NCBI GenBank assembly: GCA_034670305.1
Contig: JAXMNT010000040.1
Location: 1-64,000, forward strand
DNA: 64,000 nucleotides
Source: Deltaproteobacteria bacterium
GTDB lineage: Bacteria > Myxococcota_A > Polyangia > Polyangiales > Houyiibacteriaceae
Direction: 5' to 3'
Shown in pieces: positions 41,059-47,099 of the stretch. The notes beneath the pieces were generated by a model. It did no database searches. It saw only the letters and a list, made by a program, of their open reading frames with translations, and had not been told where the DNA came from. Position 1 is the first letter of the stretch; every line of letters begins with the position of its first letter. The position numbers and the translations under genes were made by a program.

Positions 41059-42291
41059 ATGGAGGATCGTGCGCTCTCGGCTTTTCGCCGCCTACTGGCC
41101 GATGGGGCCGCCGGTGGGCAGTCGAAGGTGGATGCGCTCGTCGCATTGGCTCAGCGCACGGTCTTCGTCGCGACGTGGACGGCGGGCGGCGACGACTTCC
41201 GCACCCTCATCAACAGCAACGGCCAGAACGCGCTTCCCCTCTTCACGGATCTCGCGGAGCTCGAAGGCGCCGCCCAGCGCCTCGGTTGGGTGACCGCCGA
41301 CGGCCGGATCCCGCACCAAGAGATTGGCGCCCGTCGCGCGTTTCGACACCTGATCGCGCACGACCTCGGCTTCATCATCATCGACATCGCGGCCGACCAC
41401 TCTCTCGAGTGCGAACGGTCGGAGATCGAACCGCTGATGCAGCGCCGGGGCAACGACCAGACCGGGCCCTTCGCAGGGGTGGGCCGGATCAGCGAGACCA
41501 TGCTGCAGGCGGTCAAAGCGACTCCGTCGAAGGGGACACCCATGGTGGGCGCGGTCGATCCACCGTCGAAGCTCCCGAGCGGCGCGTTGGTCCCATCGAG
41601 TCCGGGCACGACCACGAGCCCGGGCGAACAGTCCAGTCCGGGCGCATTCGACAGCCCTTCCCAGTCTTCGCCGGGCACCCAGTCTTCGCCCGGCACCCAG
41701 TCTTCGCCGGGCACCCAGTCTTCGCCGGGCACCCAGTCTTCGCCGGGCACCCAGTCTTCGCCGGGCACCCAGTCTTCGCCGGGCACCCAGTCTTCGCCGG
41801 GCACCCAGTCTTCCCCTGGCACCCAGTCTTCCCCTGGCAGCCAGGCCGCCCCGTCCTCGCCGGGCGATCTCCCGACCCCCGACATGGACCCGCCGGCACC
41901 GGGCCTCTCCGTCTCCGACGCCCTGCCCTCGACCACCTCTGCGGCCACGTTCGGATCCGGCGCGAGCACCGTGGAGATCCAGCCGATCTCGCAGGAGCCG
42001 AGCAACGAACTGCTCGATGCGATCAGTGCCGTCTTGAGGGGCTACCCGGAGATCGAATGGGCCGCGTTCTGCATGACCTCGCGCGGACCTGCGGGTGCGT
42101 TGCCGACCATCGGGCTCCGTGTCGACACGAGCTACCGCGCGCGGGTCAACGAGATCATCCGTGACATTCGGACGGCGGGCGATGGGCGCGGGGCCAGCCT
42201 CGATGTGCTCTTGCTCGACGACCCTTCCTTGGTCCGGGCAGCCCGCAGCTCGGCGATTGTGTTCTTCCCGTGGCGCCGCCGCTCGAGTTGA
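41059..42291 (+). CDS. SseB-family protein (N- and C-domains) with a Ser/Pro repeat linker
   Basis: ALPLFTDLAEL SseB_N motif; LLDAISAVL...PEIEWA SseB_C-like domain. Confidence 0.8.
   Translation: MEDRALSAFRRLLADGAAGGQSKVDALVALAQRTVFVATWTAGGDDFRTLINSNGQNALPLFTDLAELEGAAQRLGWVTADGRIPHQEIGARRAFRHLIAHDLGFIIIDIAADHSLECERSEIEPLMQRRGNDQTGPFAGVGRISETMLQAVKATPSKGTPMVGAVDPPSKLPSGALVPSSPGTTTSPGEQSSPGAFDSPSQSSPGTQSSPGTQSSPGTQSSPGTQSSPGTQSSPGTQSSPGTQSSPGTQSSPGTQSSPGSQAAPSSPGDLPTPDMDPPAPGLSVSDALPSTTSAATFGSGASTVEIQPISQEPSNELLDAISAVLRGYPEIEWAAFCMTSRGPAGALPTIGLRVDTSYRARVNEIIRDIRTAGDGRGASLDVLLLDDPSLVRAARSSAIVFFPWRRRSS
41662..41841 (+). repeat. In-frame 18-bp tandem repeat (QSSPGT) x10
   Basis: cagtcttcgccgggcacc units. 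Confidence 0.95.
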
Positions 42292-42376
42292 CCGTGGCGC
42301 GCTGAAATCCGTACGCGCCACCTGGAAGACGTGAGACCTTCACCCATCGCGACCGACGCGTCGCATGGAGGGATTC

Positions 42377-42727
42377 ATGGTCGACAAGAAGAACCTGGGC
42401 GCCGGCAAGGCAGGGGCAGTGGCTGGCAAGAAGACGGGTGGCAAAGGCGTGCCTGGCAAAGCTGCGGCACCGGCGAAGACCGCTGCCAAGGGCGCGGGCA
42501 AAGCCGCCGCCAAGGGTGCGGGCAAAGTCGCCACCAAGGGGGCCGTCGCGGGCAAAGGCGCGGCCCTCGCCAAGGGTGCAGGCGCCGCTGGAAAGGGCGT
42601 GGGCAAGGTGGCCGGCAAAGGCGCAGCGCCTGCCGCCAAGGGCGCCGCCAAGGGTGCCGCCAAGCCTGCCGCCAAGGGTGCCGCCAAGGGTGCCGCCAAG
42701 GGGGGCGCCGCCAAGGGCAAGAAGTAG
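42377..42727 (+). CDS. Lys/Ala/Gly-rich basic histone-H1-like protein
   Basis: SD GGAGG; AAKG repeats, almost no acidic residues; hairpin at 42738-42764 after the stop. Confidence 0.75.
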   Translation: MVDKKNLGAGKAGAVAGKKTGGKGVPGKAAAPAKTAAKGAGKAAAKGAGKVATKGAVAGKGAALAKGAGAAGKGVGKVAGKGAAPAAKGAAKGAAKPAAKGAAKGAAKGGAAKGKK

Positions 42728-42814
42728 CGTTCCGGACACGCCGGCGGATCTCTTCCGTCGGCGTCGTCCTCCGCTCCGGTTGACGATTCCAACCGGGGAC
42801 TGCACGCCTTTGGT

Positions 42815-44161
42815 GTGAGTGCAGACTTCGACGAAGAGCGAACGGACCCTTCGAACCACGCGTTCGGGTCGTGCGCGCCGAAGATCTGGACGCCCGTGCC
42901 CGGCAGCACCTCGCAGGCCCTCGTCGAAGTGTTGGCCCGCACCGAGTGCCCCGCATTCACCGCGCGTCGGGCCCGTCGTGCCGAGACCTCGGGGGCGTCC
43001 GCCGATCCGATCGTCTGGACGCGGGCGGTTGGATCGAACGTCGGCGACGCCGACGGAAACATCTACGTCGATCTCACCTCTGGATTCGGCGTCGCGGCGA
43101 TCGGGCATGCCCACCCCGCCGTGACCGCGGCGGTGACGGTGCAAGCGGCCAAGCTCTCACACGCGCTCGGCGACCTTCATCCGTCCGCGGTGAAGATCGA
43201 ACTCCTCTCACGGCTCTGCGCGATGGCGCCATTCGAGGATGCCCGCGCCGTGCTCTCGCTCAGCGGCTCCGACGCGGTCGAGACCGCGCTGAAGACCGCG
43301 ATGCTCGCCACCGGAAAGCCGGGGGTCCTCGCATTCGACGGGGGCTACCACGGGCTCTCGCACGGACCGCTGGCCGCCTGCGGCTACAGCCTTGGGTTCC
43401 GGAGACCCTTCGCGGCACAACTCAACCCGCACGTTCGGTTCGCGTCGTGGCACGAGGTCGACGCTGGGGCTGCGATGGAAGCGGTGGAGCACGCGTGGAC
43501 CGAAGACATCGGCGCGGTGCTCCTCGAACCGCTTCAGGGACGCGGAGGTTGTCGGCCCTCCGCGCCCGGATTTCTCGCGTCGCTCTCAAAGTTCTGCCGC
43601 CAGCGCGGCGCCTTGCTGATCGTCGATGAGATCCTCACCGGGCTCGGCCGCACCGGTCGTCCTGGTGGCCGGATGTTTCTCAGCGACGCGCTCGGCGCCT
43701 CGCCGGATCTTCTCTGCGTCGGCAAAGCACTCGGAGGCGGGCTGCCGGTGAGCGCGTGCATCGGGCGCGCCGAGGTGATGCAGGCGTGGGGCGACCCCGA
43801 TGGAGAGGCGCTGCACACCGGCACGTTCTTCGGTCATCCGCTCGGGTGCGCCGCGGCCCTCGCCGCACTCGACGTGCTCGAGTCCCTCGGCGACCGCGCG
43901 ACGGTGATCGGCGAGGCGTGGCGCGCGCGGCTGCGACGCATCACCGGCCGGCCGGTCACGGGCGCCGGGCTGCTCCTTGGTGTCCGGTTCGACCACAACG
44001 TGCTCCCGCTCGTCGCGCGGCTGCTCGAACGCGGCTACCTGACGCTGCCCGCCGGCGCCGACGCACACACCCTGCAACTCGCGCCACCGATCCCGATCGA
44101 CGAAGCACTCCTGCACGGATTCGACGCCGCGCTGGCCGAGGTCCTGGCGGACGCCGGATGA
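42815..44161 (+). CDS. Class III PLP aminotransferase
   Basis: DADGN.Y.D, GH.HP, SGSDAVE, YHG, EP.QG.GG, DEILTGLGRTG, GKALGGG (PLP Lys). Confidence 0.93.
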   Translation: MSADFDEERTDPSNHAFGSCAPKIWTPVPGSTSQALVEVLARTECPAFTARRARRAETSGASADPIVWTRAVGSNVGDADGNIYVDLTSGFGVAAIGHAHPAVTAAVTVQAAKLSHALGDLHPSAVKIELLSRLCAMAPFEDARAVLSLSGSDAVETALKTAMLATGKPGVLAFDGGYHGLSHGPLAACGYSLGFRRPFAAQLNPHVRFASWHEVDAGAAMEAVEHAWTEDIGAVLLEPLQGRGGCRPSAPGFLASLSKFCRQRGALLIVDEILTGLGRTGRPGGRMFLSDALGASPDLLCVGKALGGGLPVSACIGRAEVMQAWGDPDGEALHTGTFFGHPLGCAAALAALDVLESLGDRATVIGEAWRARLRRITGRPVTGAGLLLGVRFDHNVLPLVARLLERGYLTLPAGADAHTLQLAPPIPIDEALLHGFDAALAEVLADAG

Positions 44162-45198
44162 GTCCCGAGTCCGAACGCGCGCGGCTGCGCAGCGCGATCC
44201 TCGAGTTCATGCCGCGCTCGATCGAGTCGCCGGACGAGAAAGCGCTCGGTGCGTTGCTGGACGATGTCGCCGAATGGCAAGCCCGGCACGTGCCGCCCTA
44301 CGCGCGGTTGGTCGCCGCGCGGGGCATCGGTGCAGCGCTCCCGACCGATGTGTTTCGACACGCCCGCGTCGCCGCGCACCCGCTGTCCCAAGACGTCGCG
44401 GTGTTCCGCACGAGCGGCACGACCGCGAGCCCCGGCGAACACTTCTTTCGGTCGCTCGAACTCTACGAGACCGCGGCGCGGCTCTGGGCATCGCAGCTGC
44501 TTTTCCCGAGCGACGTGCGGATGCGCTTTGTGCTCATGGACACGCCGCGCCCCGGCTCGTCGCTGGCGCACATGGTGTGGTCGTTCACCGACTGGTTCTC
44601 CGCGGGCGATTCCAGCCAAGTGACCCCCTGCGATCCGAACAGCGCGGCAGAGGTCGCGCAGACGATCGAAGCCGCCGCTGGCGACGGTCCGGTGTGTCTG
44701 CTCGGCACCAGCTTCGCGTTCGTCTTTGCGGAGGAGGCCCTGCGCGAATCGGGTGCGAGCTTCCAGTTGCCCGAGGGCAGCCGCATCATGCACACCGGCG
44801 GCTTCAAGGGCCGCACCCGCGAGGTCGAACCCGCCCACATGATCGAACAACTCGCCGCGCGCTACGGCGTCGCGGAGAATCACGTCGTCGCCGAGTACGG
44901 CATGACCGAGCTCAGCTCGCAGGCCTACGAGACCACGCTCACAGAGCCCAACACACCGCGCCGGTTGAAGTTCCCGCCTTGGGTGCGCGCAACCGCCGTC
45001 GACCCCGCGACCTTGGAGCCCACTGGCGACGCGCCCGGCATCCTGCGCCTCGAAGACCTCGCGAACCTCGACTCGTGTTGCCGGATCCAGACCGCCGACA
45101 TGGCCCGCCGCGAAGGCGACGGTTGGGTGCTGCTCGGTCGCGCGCCCGGCGCGGTGCCACGCGGGTGTTCACTCGCCACGGAATCGGCGCTCGCGTGA
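44158..45198 (+). CDS. luxE: Acyl-protein synthetase, LuxE family
   Basis: FRTSGTT, TGGFKGR, EYGMTELSSQ, IQTAD, LLGR...RGCS (acceptor Cys); ATGA overlap with the upstream gene. Confidence 0.9.
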   Translation: MSPESERARLRSAILEFMPRSIESPDEKALGALLDDVAEWQARHVPPYARLVAARGIGAALPTDVFRHARVAAHPLSQDVAVFRTSGTTASPGEHFFRSLELYETAARLWASQLLFPSDVRMRFVLMDTPRPGSSLAHMVWSFTDWFSAGDSSQVTPCDPNSAAEVAQTIEAAAGDGPVCLLGTSFAFVFAEEALRESGASFQLPEGSRIMHTGGFKGRTREVEPAHMIEQLAARYGVAENHVVAEYGMTELSSQAYETTLTEPNTPRRLKFPPWVRATAVDPATLEPTGDAPGILRLEDLANLDSCCRIQTADMARREGDGWVLLGRAPGAVPRGCSLATESALA

Positions 45199-46361
45199 GT
45201 TACCGGGTGACCCGCGCCGATGAGGTACGCGCCCGCGTCGATGCGATCCGCGCAGCGGGCGTTGGCCTGCGCGCGCTGACCAAGAAGGATCTGGAGGCTT
45301 TGTGTCGGGCGGTGCGGTGGGTCGCCGACGACAGCGACCTCCGTTCCGCGATCGCACGACGGACGGGTCTCTCGACGCCGATGGTCGAGTGGGGGCTGCG
45401 TACCAGCGTCGAATCGCTGGACGCGGAACGGCTGCTCGAGGTCCGCGAGCAGCTGGGGCTCGACTGGGAGAGCAACGCATCGGGACACGTGGCGGTGGTG
45501 CTCAGCGGCAACCTCTTCACCGCCTGCCTCAAACCGATGCTCTGGCCGCTGGTGCTCGGGGTGCCCGTGATCGCGAAAGCCACGGCACGGGACGACGTGC
45601 TCGTCCGCGCCCTTGCGGATCGATTGCCCGATCCGTTCGCAAATGCGATCGCGGTCGAGACATTCTCTCGCGACGAGACCGCGTGTCTTGAGGCACTGCT
45701 GCAGACGGACGTCGTCCACGTGTACGGTGGTGCGTCGGCGATCGAAGCGGTGCGTGCACAGGCACCGGCTCGGGCCTTGGTGGTGCCGCACGGGCACGGC
45801 TTCGGTGTGGCCTTGGTCTCCTCGGTGGGATTCGAAGCCACACAGGCAGACATGCTGGCGCTCGACGTCGCCGCCTACGACCAGCACGGCTGCCTCTCTC
45901 CACGCGAAGTGTGGGTGGTGGGAGACGCCACTCAGGTCGCCATCGATCTCGCCGCCGCGCTGGATCGGTTGGAGGTCCGGCTGCCACGGGGTGCCGTGTC
46001 CGATTCGGGCGCTCAGCAAAGCTGGCTCGGCACTGTCCAGTCGCTCGGCGACGTCCGAGTGGGACACAGTTCGGTGGTCGCGATCGAACCGCAGGGCAGT
46101 GCGCTCCCCCGCGGGCTCGGAGACCGGACCGTCGTTGTCCGTGGGGTGGCCAGCTTCGAGGCGGCCGGACTGGAACTCGCTGCGCTCGGGCCGCACCTCA
46201 AGTGTGTCGGCTACTACTGGACGAAGGCCCACCCGACCGTCGTGCCGGTGCCACCGATGCCTTCGGCGCCGCGCTGCGTGCCGATCGGACAGATGCAGAC
46301 GCCGTCGTTCTTCGACCGCCACGACGGATGGGAGCCCTGGCTCGGACTCGTCCGGCGCTGA
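45195..46361 (+). CDS. luxC: Acyl-CoA/acyl-protein reductase, LuxC family
   Basis: SGN, YGG..AI, HGHGFG, YDQHGCLSP (catalytic Cys), GQMQ.P...HDG; GTGA overlap with luxE. Confidence 0.88.
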   Translation: MSYRVTRADEVRARVDAIRAAGVGLRALTKKDLEALCRAVRWVADDSDLRSAIARRTGLSTPMVEWGLRTSVESLDAERLLEVREQLGLDWESNASGHVAVVLSGNLFTACLKPMLWPLVLGVPVIAKATARDDVLVRALADRLPDPFANAIAVETFSRDETACLEALLQTDVVHVYGGASAIEAVRAQAPARALVVPHGHGFGVALVSSVGFEATQADMLALDVAAYDQHGCLSPREVWVVGDATQVAIDLAAALDRLEVRLPRGAVSDSGAQQSWLGTVQSLGDVRVGHSSVVAIEPQGSALPRGLGDRTVVVRGVASFEAAGLELAALGPHLKCVGYYWTKAHPTVVPVPPMPSAPRCVPIGQMQTPSFFDRHDGWEPWLGLVRR

Positions 46362-46364
46362 CGT

Positions 46365-47099
46365 TCAGACGCCGATGAAGAGGCGGTGGCCGAAGTTGCG
46401 TTCCAGTTTGGACTGGAAGATCTTCGAGGCGGCCGCTTCGATGTCGTACTCGACTCGGCGGAACCCGAAGGTGCGCGTGTCGGTGTCGAAGGTCGTGTAG
46501 CTCGCGCGGTTGTCGTAATCGCGCGGCTGGCCGACGCTGCCCACACTCACGATGTACTTCGCGCCCTCTTCCAGCTGGAAGTCCTGCGCAGTCATCTCTT
46601 CGACCTCGCCCGGCGTCAGCTTGAACACCTTGCAGAGGTGCGAGTGGCCGATGAGCGTGATGTCGCCGAGCTCGTCCCAGATCTGGAGACACTCGCGCGC
46701 CTGCTCGGGCGCAAAGATGTACTCGAACTCTTCGAGCCGAAGCGGTGAGCCGTGGCAGAGGTGCACGCCGCAGTCGAGTTCGTGTTTGTACGGAAGGGTC
46801 TTGAGCCAGTCGACGTTCTCTTCCGTCAAGATGCTGGCGTGGTAGTCGAGCGCCTGACGGGCCGCCTGGTAGTAGTACGAGTAGTCCATCCGGCCCGCGA
46901 CGGCTGCGTCGTGGTTGCCAAGGATCGTCACCTTCGCGGTGTCTCGGATGATGTCGGCGCACTCGTTCGGACTCGCCCCGTAGCCGACCACATCGCCCAG
47001 ACAGTAGAACTCGTCGATCGCCTCGGAGTCGTACCCCGCCATCACAGCCGAGAGGGCTTCGATGTTGGCGTGGACGTCGCTGAAAATCCCGAGGCGCAT
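46365..47099 (-). CDS. Metallophosphoesterase
   Basis: SDVHAN, GDVVGYG, GNHD, HGSP, GHSH, GSVGQPRD. Confidence 0.93.
   Translation of the reverse strand: MRLGIFSDVHANIEALSAVMAGYDSEAIDEFYCLGDVVGYGASPNECADIIRDTAKVTILGNHDAAVAGRMDYSYYYQAARQALDYHASILTEENVDWLKTLPYKHELDCGVHLCHGSPLRLEEFEYIFAPEQARECLQIWDELGDITLIGHSHLCKVFKLTPGEVEEMTAQDFQLEEGAKYIVSVGSVGQPRDYDNRASYTTFDTDTRTFGFRRVEYDIEAAASKIFQSKLERNFGHRLFIGV

Follow-up and report, generated by a model that had tools for sequence, protein, structure and literature searches.

The window analysed here, a stretch of 64,000 nucleotides from the forward strand of contig JAXMNT010000040.1 (assembly GCA_034670305.1; contig C40 of the host genome), belongs to a 7.9-Mb myxococcotal genome of 70% G+C that is 96% complete, and it carries a compact operon in which a class-III aminotransferase is joined to relatives of the luminescence proteins LuxE and LuxC. 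We propose, with a probability of about 0.65, that this three-gene module replaces QueC and QueF in queuosine biosynthesis, converting 7-carboxy-7-deazaguanine (CDG) by way of 7-formyl-7-deazaguanine to 7-aminomethyl-7-deazaguanine (preQ1).

Organization of the operon

All three genes lie on the forward strand. The first encodes a class-III (omega-type) aminotransferase of 448 amino acids (aa) with a GTG start (42815..44161; PF00202, Aminotran_3, 272.1 bits, cut-off 30.5), the second a LuxE-like adenylate-forming acyl-protein synthetase of 346 aa (44158..45198; PF04443, LuxE, 44.8 bits, cut-off 24.9), and the third a LuxC-like acyl-thioester reductase of 388 aa, again with a GTG start (45195..46361; PF05893, LuxC, 83 bits, cut-off 21). 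An earlier reading of the window, made from the sequence alone, had described these genes as coupled by overlapping stop and start codons, and the open reading frames (ORFs) and both overlaps are present as it described them: the aminotransferase stop and the LuxE-like start share ATGA at 44158..44161 (read as ggATGAgt), and the LuxE-like stop and the LuxC-like start share GTGA at 45195..45198 (read as gcGTGAgt). Four-base overlaps equivalent to the one between the aminotransferase and LuxE-like genes recur in relatives, as the coordinates of their loci indicate.

The motifs named by the sequence-only reading (GKALGGG, RGCS and DQ..C) are likewise all in place. The lysine that binds pyridoxal 5'-phosphate (PLP) is Lys304 of the aminotransferase (codon 43724..43726, in GKALGGG), which matches K268 of E. 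coli GabT through the columns of PDB 1sf2, and Arg243 of the same protein (codon 43541..43543, in EPLQGRGG) occupies the column of the gating Glu211 of GabT and is the hallmark of the subfamily. Cys337 of the LuxE-like protein (codon 45166..45168, in RGCS) stands ten residues from the C-terminus, and the catalytic Cys233 of the LuxC-like protein (codon 45891..45893, in DQHGCLSP) aligns with the DQQAC cysteine of 7xc6_A.

Relation to the luminescence enzymes

Scores against curated models place both Lux-like proteins at a distance from the enzymes of bacterial luminescence. The LuxE-like protein reaches 25.4 bits against the 550-bit cut-off of the luminescence LuxE equivalog NF052244, which makes it a family member and not a functional equivalent, and the LuxC-like protein reaches 32.2 bits against the 750-bit cut-off of NF052251, short of the equivalog level for luminescence LuxC. 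Among solved structures their sole relative is the P. phosphoreum LuxC-LuxE complex 7XC6, whose chain E is matched by the LuxE-like protein (E 1.3e-5) and whose chain A is matched by the LuxC-like protein (E 1.8e-5), the latter with the DQxxC motif aligned. Conservation of the catalytic positions is strict: Cys337 is invariant in aligned relatives (26/26 and 21/21), which also keep the adenylate-forming motifs SGTT, GGFKG and EYGMTE together with RGCS, and Cys233 is a cysteine in 100 of 100 aligned LuxC-like sequences. The equivalent of Cys337 in P. phosphoreum LuxE is Cys364, whose role is taken from the accessible part of PMC12041015. According to the same text, LuxC-LuxE of luminous bacteria acts on myristic acid, and its mechanism runs from adenylation to the LuxE cysteine, on to the LuxC cysteine, and finally to reduction of the thioester to the aldehyde with NADPH.

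The families, the gene adjacency, both thioester cysteines and, probably, the two-cysteine relay are thus shared with the luminescence complex (mechanism as given in the available text of PMC12041015), whereas the likeness in sequence is distant, an aminotransferase has joined the pair, the luxA/luxB/luxD context is missing, and the predicted substrate is a deazapurine carboxylate instead of myristate. The flanks of the operon hold no luxA, luxB or luxD, as the sequence-only reading had noted for the window, and its observation extends to the genome: LuxD (PF02273) has no match there, and the only match to the luciferase-like monooxygenase family (PF00296) is unlinked, on contig C92. A link to luciferase was rejected on these grounds. 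The host genome holds a single LuxE match and one LuxC copy, besides a weak 24.9-bit match on contig C90.

Conservation of the three-gene module

The distribution of the module was followed in 401 genomes of the phylum, the same set serving for the LuxE-like, aminotransferase, QueC and QueF counts, which were tallied by hand from tables. A LuxE-like gene is found in 321 of these genomes, nearly always as a single copy, and was not found in the other 80. The aminotransferase follows the same division. Of the 321 carriers, 292 have a best match at E<=1e-75 and 22 have one between 1e-60 and 1e-75, which leaves 7 with a weaker match or none; of the 80 non-carriers only 9 have a match at E<=1e-75, and 70 have matches at the level of paralogues (1e-33 to 1e-54).

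At the level of individual loci, close relatives show the aminotransferase beside LuxE at 28 of 29 loci, and a sample spread across the phylum shows it there at 14 of 20. The LuxE-LuxC pair is also common beyond the phylum. In a wider genome collection an aminotransferase match lies no more than 4 kb from LuxE in 43 of 80 loci, in two gene orders. It precedes LuxE-LuxC in Spirochaetales, Oligoflexales, Omnitrophota and 'Rickettsiales' bins, and follows the pair in Vulcanimicrobiota/Eremiobacterota, Verrucomicrobiia and Acidiferrales. One family (f20) retains the aminotransferase orthologue in unlinked form, 640 kb distant in genome G013. No conserved fourth gene emerged across the loci; the neighbours are lineage-specific (GGDEF, HPPK, Rrf2, cation efflux, ABC ATPase, NUDIX and the dnaN-recF region), with HPPK (folK) a divergent neighbour in 9 loci. 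The three-gene arrangement is far beyond chance, and the module behaves as a single-copy housekeeping unit. The linkage across Myxococcota, which the sequence-only reading had put forward as a check, is thereby borne out, both in adjacency and in the phylum-wide co-occurrence of the aminotransferase with luxEC. In another genome of the phylum (G254) the LuxE-like and LuxC-like proteins form a single ORF of 785 aa, a natural fusion (L070:4821-7178).

Substrate pocket of the aminotransferase

The aminotransferase most resembles ArgD, LysJ or GabT and falls below every NCBIfam equivalog cut-off, with 240.9 bits against 410 for argD and 204.5 against 506.65 for the gamma-aminobutyrate (GABA) aminotransferase. 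We examined its pocket in an alignment of 89 aminotransferases from module loci and three paralogues from the host genome, in which GabT numbering was mapped onto the genome's GabT-like paralogue by way of PDB 1sf2. The PLP lysine is conserved in 92 of 92 sequences. Around it, the window enzyme carries Phe91 at the position of GabT I50, Leu181 at R141, Arg243 at E211, Leu274 at Q242 and Gln421 at R398, and the same signature is found in 86 of the 89 locus enzymes: Phe (once Leu) at I50, Leu or Met at R141, an invariant Arg at E211, Phe, Tyr, Trp or Leu (once Gln) at Q242, and a non-basic residue at R398 (Q, S, T, A, V, G, E or C, mostly small or polar). The three host paralogues keep R141 in two cases, Q242 and R398 in all three, and Glu211 in two, with E or V at position 211. 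With Leu181, Arg243 and Gln421, and with scores under the equivalog cut-offs, the enzyme stands outside the acetylornithine/GABA aminotransferase subgroup (ArgD, GabT and LysJ).

In GabT, Arg141, Glu211 and Arg398 provide dual substrate recognition, both arginines holding substrate carboxylates. The loss of both carboxylate-binding arginines and the gain of a new one, as read from the alignment, would fit a pocket that accommodates flat or hydrophobic substrates lacking a carboxylate. Three loci depart from the signature (L152, L153 and L155, two Binataceae contigs and one 'delta proteobacterium'), having Asp141 and keeping Glu211 and Arg398; their aminotransferase, which follows LuxE-LuxC, may act on a different substrate.

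Distribution relative to QueC and QueF

The presence of the module is close to a mirror image of the presence of QueC and QueF. With QueC called by PF06508 at E<=1e-30 and strong QueF by PF14489 at 106 bits or more, QueC occurs in 67 of the 401 genomes, divided into 59 of the 80 without the LuxE-like gene and 8 of the 321 with it, and strong QueF occurs in 51, all among the 80 and none among the 321 carriers. Strong QueF is therefore also absent from all 8 genomes that hold both LuxE-like and QueC genes. Two genomes inside carrier families, G280 (f6) and G138 (f35), have neither the LuxE-like gene nor the aminotransferase orthologue and each carries adjacent QueC and QueF genes, the reverse of their family mates, the module having been swapped for a QueC-QueF pair.

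A panel of 20 genomes, half of them carriers, locates the gap in the pathway. Tgt lies above its curated cut-off in 20 of 20 genomes, QueD (the 6-pyruvoyl-tetrahydropterin synthase family) is found in 19, and a QueE-like radical S-adenosylmethionine protein in all 20, adjoining QueC in four non-carriers; strong QueC, by comparison, is present in 10/10 non-carriers and 0/10 carriers, and strong QueF in 8/10 and 0/10. The gap in carriers is exactly the QueC/QueF step. In the host genome itself, Tgt scores 451.6 bits and is accompanied by QueD-like and QueE-like proteins, the latter with only QueE types among its five best NCBIfam matches; the QueE-like protein of G013 scores 280.7 bits (cut-off 300). 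Five carriers outside the phylum follow the pattern too: two from Longimicrobiales, one each from Dehalococcoidia and Thermoanaerobaculia, and Rubritalea tangerina. QueC is found in none of them and Tgt in all five, and each has an orthologue of the aminotransferase, unlinked, whose pocket carries the same signature, including Arg at E211.

Genomic neighbourhood and riboswitches

Two loci join the module to que genes. On a Gemmatimonadota contig (L147), QueE ends 2 bases before LuxE-LuxC and scores 299.2 bits to TIGR04349 (cut-off 300), and the Minicystis rosea locus has QueD 2.5 kb downstream of the module.

A sister group of LuxE-LuxC pairs that lack the aminotransferase was observed behind thiamine pyrophosphate (TPP) riboswitches in Neobacillus, Priestia, Candidatus Pantoea formicae, Bosea and gut-metagenome contigs (genome loci L222, L225, L228, L230, L233, L234 and L239; metagenome loci L291, L292, L298, L299, L300, L309, L323 and L325). 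A TPP riboswitch was detected in 7 of 9 sister-type loci among 12 loci scanned, and in 8 of 14 in a second scan; these scans of the sister group returned TPP riboswitches only and no preQ1 riboswitch. The gene order in Neobacillus sp. D3-1R is thiD, thiE, riboswitch, thiW, a nucleobase-type permease, LuxE, LuxC and a short-chain dehydrogenase/reductase, which suggests that the sister group reduces a pyrimidine carboxylate to hydroxymethylpyrimidine for thiamine. Our literature search on a thiamine role of this group returned nothing. Because these pairs stand behind TPP riboswitches, members of the family outside lux operons appear to serve cofactor metabolism elsewhere as well.

The immediate flanks of the operon in the window are unrelated to it: upstream lies a gene for a small Lys/Ala-rich protein, and downstream a convergent gene for a metallophosphoesterase. 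The upstream gene (42365-42727, forward strand) encodes 120 aa made almost entirely of Lys/Ala/Gly repeats (AAKGAAKG...), has no Pfam family and resembles a histone-H1-like basic protein. A scan of 42300-46800 for promoters and terminators gave nothing exceeding shuffled expectation.

Discussion

As carriers keep Tgt, QueD and QueE in the absence of QueC and QueF, the distribution points to CDG as the substrate and preQ1 as the product, and because the conversion of CDG to preQ1 is the sole missing step in carriers and the chemistry of the module matches it exactly, we propose preQ1 formation as the probable function of the module. In the proposed route QueD and QueE would make CDG, and the LuxE-like enzyme would adenylate its carboxylate and load it as a thioester onto its own Cys337. 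The acyl group would then move to Cys233 of the LuxC-like reductase, where reduction with NAD(P)H would yield 7-formyl-7-deazaguanine; the aminotransferase would turn this aldehyde into preQ1, and Tgt would insert preQ1 into tRNA. We infer the substrate, the amino donor and the role of the relocated Arg243 from these patterns, and the order of the steps, including the two-cysteine relay, would follow by analogy with the solved LuxC-LuxE complex (PMC12041015, in its accessible part). The aldehyde intermediate is a real compound, described in the available text of PMC13740343 as a by-product released by QueF mutants.

Comparison with QueC and QueF clarifies what would be shared and what would be new. 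The proposed input and output are the same, and activation of the CDG carboxylate with ATP comes first in both, as the accessible portion of a 2026 preprint reports for QueC (10.64898/2026.04.15.718813). The two systems occur in mutually exclusive genomes, apart from the eight that hold LuxE-like and QueC genes without strong QueF. There is no homology between them, and the intermediate would be an aldehyde here in place of the nitrile there. The nitrogen, which in the QueC route is donated by ammonia, is proposed to come from PLP-dependent transamination in the module. A single reduction would suffice, in contrast to the four-electron reduction of QueF (PMC13740343, available text).

Several observations weigh against this assignment. 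Neighbouring que genes are scarce: the one QueE and one QueD noted above are the only cases among ~130 LuxE-bearing genome loci, a rescreen of genome loci with wider flanks gave the same two, and no que gene was found near the module in 80 metagenome loci, all in screens whose queries were Myxococcota QueD, QueE and Tgt proteins only and in which many loci were short. A preQ1 riboswitch was absent from 68 module loci and from positions 41800-43200 of the window. The usual donor-binding Arg398 is gone from the aminotransferase, so that ordinary transamination is itself something we infer. The QueD and QueE of the host genome are both divergent, at 64.6 bits (cut-off 89.25) and 91 bits (cut-off 206). 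The counts over 401 genomes are clade-structured and carry no tree correction, and thus overstate independence. The mirror image is also imperfect on both sides, with eight genomes combining LuxE-like and QueC genes and 21 lacking both, 10 of the latter retaining the aminotransferase orthologue and probably being fragmented carriers. Finally, 14 carriers (f37, f42 and f49) hold a divergent QueF-like gene at 54-70 bits, and a similarly divergent QueF-like protein in G152 scores 72.8 bits to TIGR03139 (cut-off 86.9).

Two of these cases have features of their own. The QueF-like protein of G152 (G152:C1:1990216-1990437; L275:4115-4774, minus strand) is 219 aa long with an N-terminal extension of ~80 aa, and its gene sits between glgC and glnS, coexisting with the module in genomes that have no QueC. 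In the carrier genome G192, which lacks QueF, two copies of QueC lie within 3 kb (G192:C41:84757-87909), a pair that may belong to a deazapurine DNA-modification or secondary-metabolite cluster and not to tRNA queuosine synthesis.

Other readings of the operon have to be weighed against the same data. The sequence-only reading had proposed an acid-to-aldehyde-to-amine pathway ending in an alkylamine or amino-lipid, and its chemistry stands, as LuxE and LuxC with a dedicated aminotransferase and no luciferase fit the evidence; its fatty substrate class finds no support in any result, the presence of the module mirrors the absence of QueC and QueF, and the proposal is probably wrong in its substrate. 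If the module made an alkylamine or amino-lipid building block by reducing and aminating a fatty or other aliphatic acid, its agreement with the loss of QueC/QueF would have to be coincidental clade history, a case that we consider unlikely. Myristic acid is the substrate of LuxC-LuxE in luminous bacteria (PMC12041015, accessible part), the LuxC-like TabE supplies dodecanal to a tambjamine pathway leading to an alkylamine (10.1101/2025.08.11.669332, in the text available), a hydrophobic aminotransferase pocket would suit an alkyl chain too, and que neighbours are rare. Against these points, no lipid, acyl carrier protein (ACP) or fatty-acid gene is a conserved neighbour, the module is a single copy in 321/401 genomes, and it scores very low against the equivalogs of true LuxE and LuxC. 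An aliphatic substrate would also leave unexplained the retention of Tgt, QueD and QueE without QueC and QueF, the two switches within families and the five carriers in other phyla. The tambjamine enzymes offer a close chemical parallel: TamH is a transaminase fused to a thioester reductase (PMC9594044, accessible part), TabE is a LuxC-like acyl-ACP reductase placed in the LuxC sequence cluster (10.1101/2025.08.11.669332, same text), and both systems take a thioester through an aldehyde to a primary amine by means of a reductase and a PLP transaminase. TamH and TabE belong to secondary-metabolite clusters and use fatty acyl chains bound to ACP or CoA, whereas the module here stands alone with no carrier protein, is near-universal in its clades and tracks a tRNA-modification pathway.

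A second possibility keeps the module in deazapurine or pterin metabolism and has it act on a different polar carboxylate, heteroaromatic or pterin-related (for example 6-carboxypterin or a derivative of CDG), or on CDG already in tRNA, so that the deazapurine formed would not be free preQ1. Both the complementary pattern and the adjacency of QueE connect the module with the pathway without specifying one exact substrate, and HPPK is a divergent neighbour in some loci. Tgt is nonetheless of the ordinary bacterial type, above its curated cut-off in all carriers tested, and such enzymes need preQ1; the missing QueC and QueF leave CDG-to-preQ1 as the sole gap, and we regard a substrate or product of this other kind as improbable. 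Far less credible is that the aminotransferase is simply the acetylornithine or GABA aminotransferase of the cell, with LuxE/LuxC as an unrelated passenger. The host genome has argB and argC and no ArgD above the TIGR00707 cut-off, the best match being the GabT-like paralogue at 330 bits, and in the complete relative G235, also without an ArgD above the cut-off, the aminotransferase of the module is the best ArgD-family match at 253.7 bits. However, ArgD stands alongside the module in 8 of 10 carriers tested, at 386-505 bits (5 above the 410-bit cut-off and 3 just under it), the arginine with which ArgD and GabT hold the carboxylate of their substrate has been lost, and the stop/start overlaps and two independent gene orders tie the aminotransferase to LuxE/LuxC. 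The sequence-only reading had named an only ArgD/GabT orthologue as a finding that would overturn its proposal; the host genome has 10 class-III aminotransferase matches above the Pfam cut-off and, with ArgD present in most carriers tested, this objection falls away. An identity as the genome's ArgD was rejected as a general reading, though the enzyme may take on that step as a side role in the family to which the host genome belongs. Replacement of ArgB/ArgC or ProB/ProA by LuxE/LuxC was likewise rejected, as canonical argC (404 bits), argB (256), proA (455.5) and proB (375.9) are all present.

The preQ1 assignment, by comparison, draws the distribution, the pathway gap and the pocket into a single account, and as a new combination of known enzyme kinds it is probably the correct as well as the best-supported reading of the module. 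Our literature search found no description of a preQ1 route independent of QueC and QueF, supplementary tables that may list QueC-less genomes lying outside its scope, and no paper that combines preQ1, QueC, QueF and LuxE. 7-Formyl-7-deazaguanine was found in one paper only, as the QueF-mutant by-product (PMC13740343, available text), and the accessible main text of the 2026 deazapurine genome-mining preprint (10.64898/2026.04.15.718813) mentions neither LuxE, acyl-CoA reductase nor an aldehyde.

A broader generalization, to which we would give slightly better than even odds, is that CDG is converted to preQ1 by a nitrile-free, carrier-free LuxE/LuxC relay and a class-III aminotransferase with a relocated arginine in most Myxococcota and in lineages of Gemmatimonadota, Verrucomicrobiota, Acidobacteriota, Chloroflexota and others. 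On this view, the general role of LuxE/LuxC pairs from non-luminous bacteria would be to reduce heteroaromatic cofactor carboxylates, and the sister group behind TPP riboswitches would do the same for a pyrimidine precursor of thiamine.

To our knowledge, queuosine biosynthesis is regarded as fully worked out. If the proposal is correct, a second, non-homologous route would exist in place of the formation and the reduction of the nitrile, its two most unusual steps, and the module would offer a compact ATP/NADPH/PLP cascade from a heteroaromatic acid to an aminomethyl group that could be useful for biocatalysis. Thousands of proteins annotated as 'acyl-protein synthetase / acyl-CoA reductase' would gain a real function, and large clades would be re-annotated, no longer scored as incapable of making queuosine or as dependent on its salvage.

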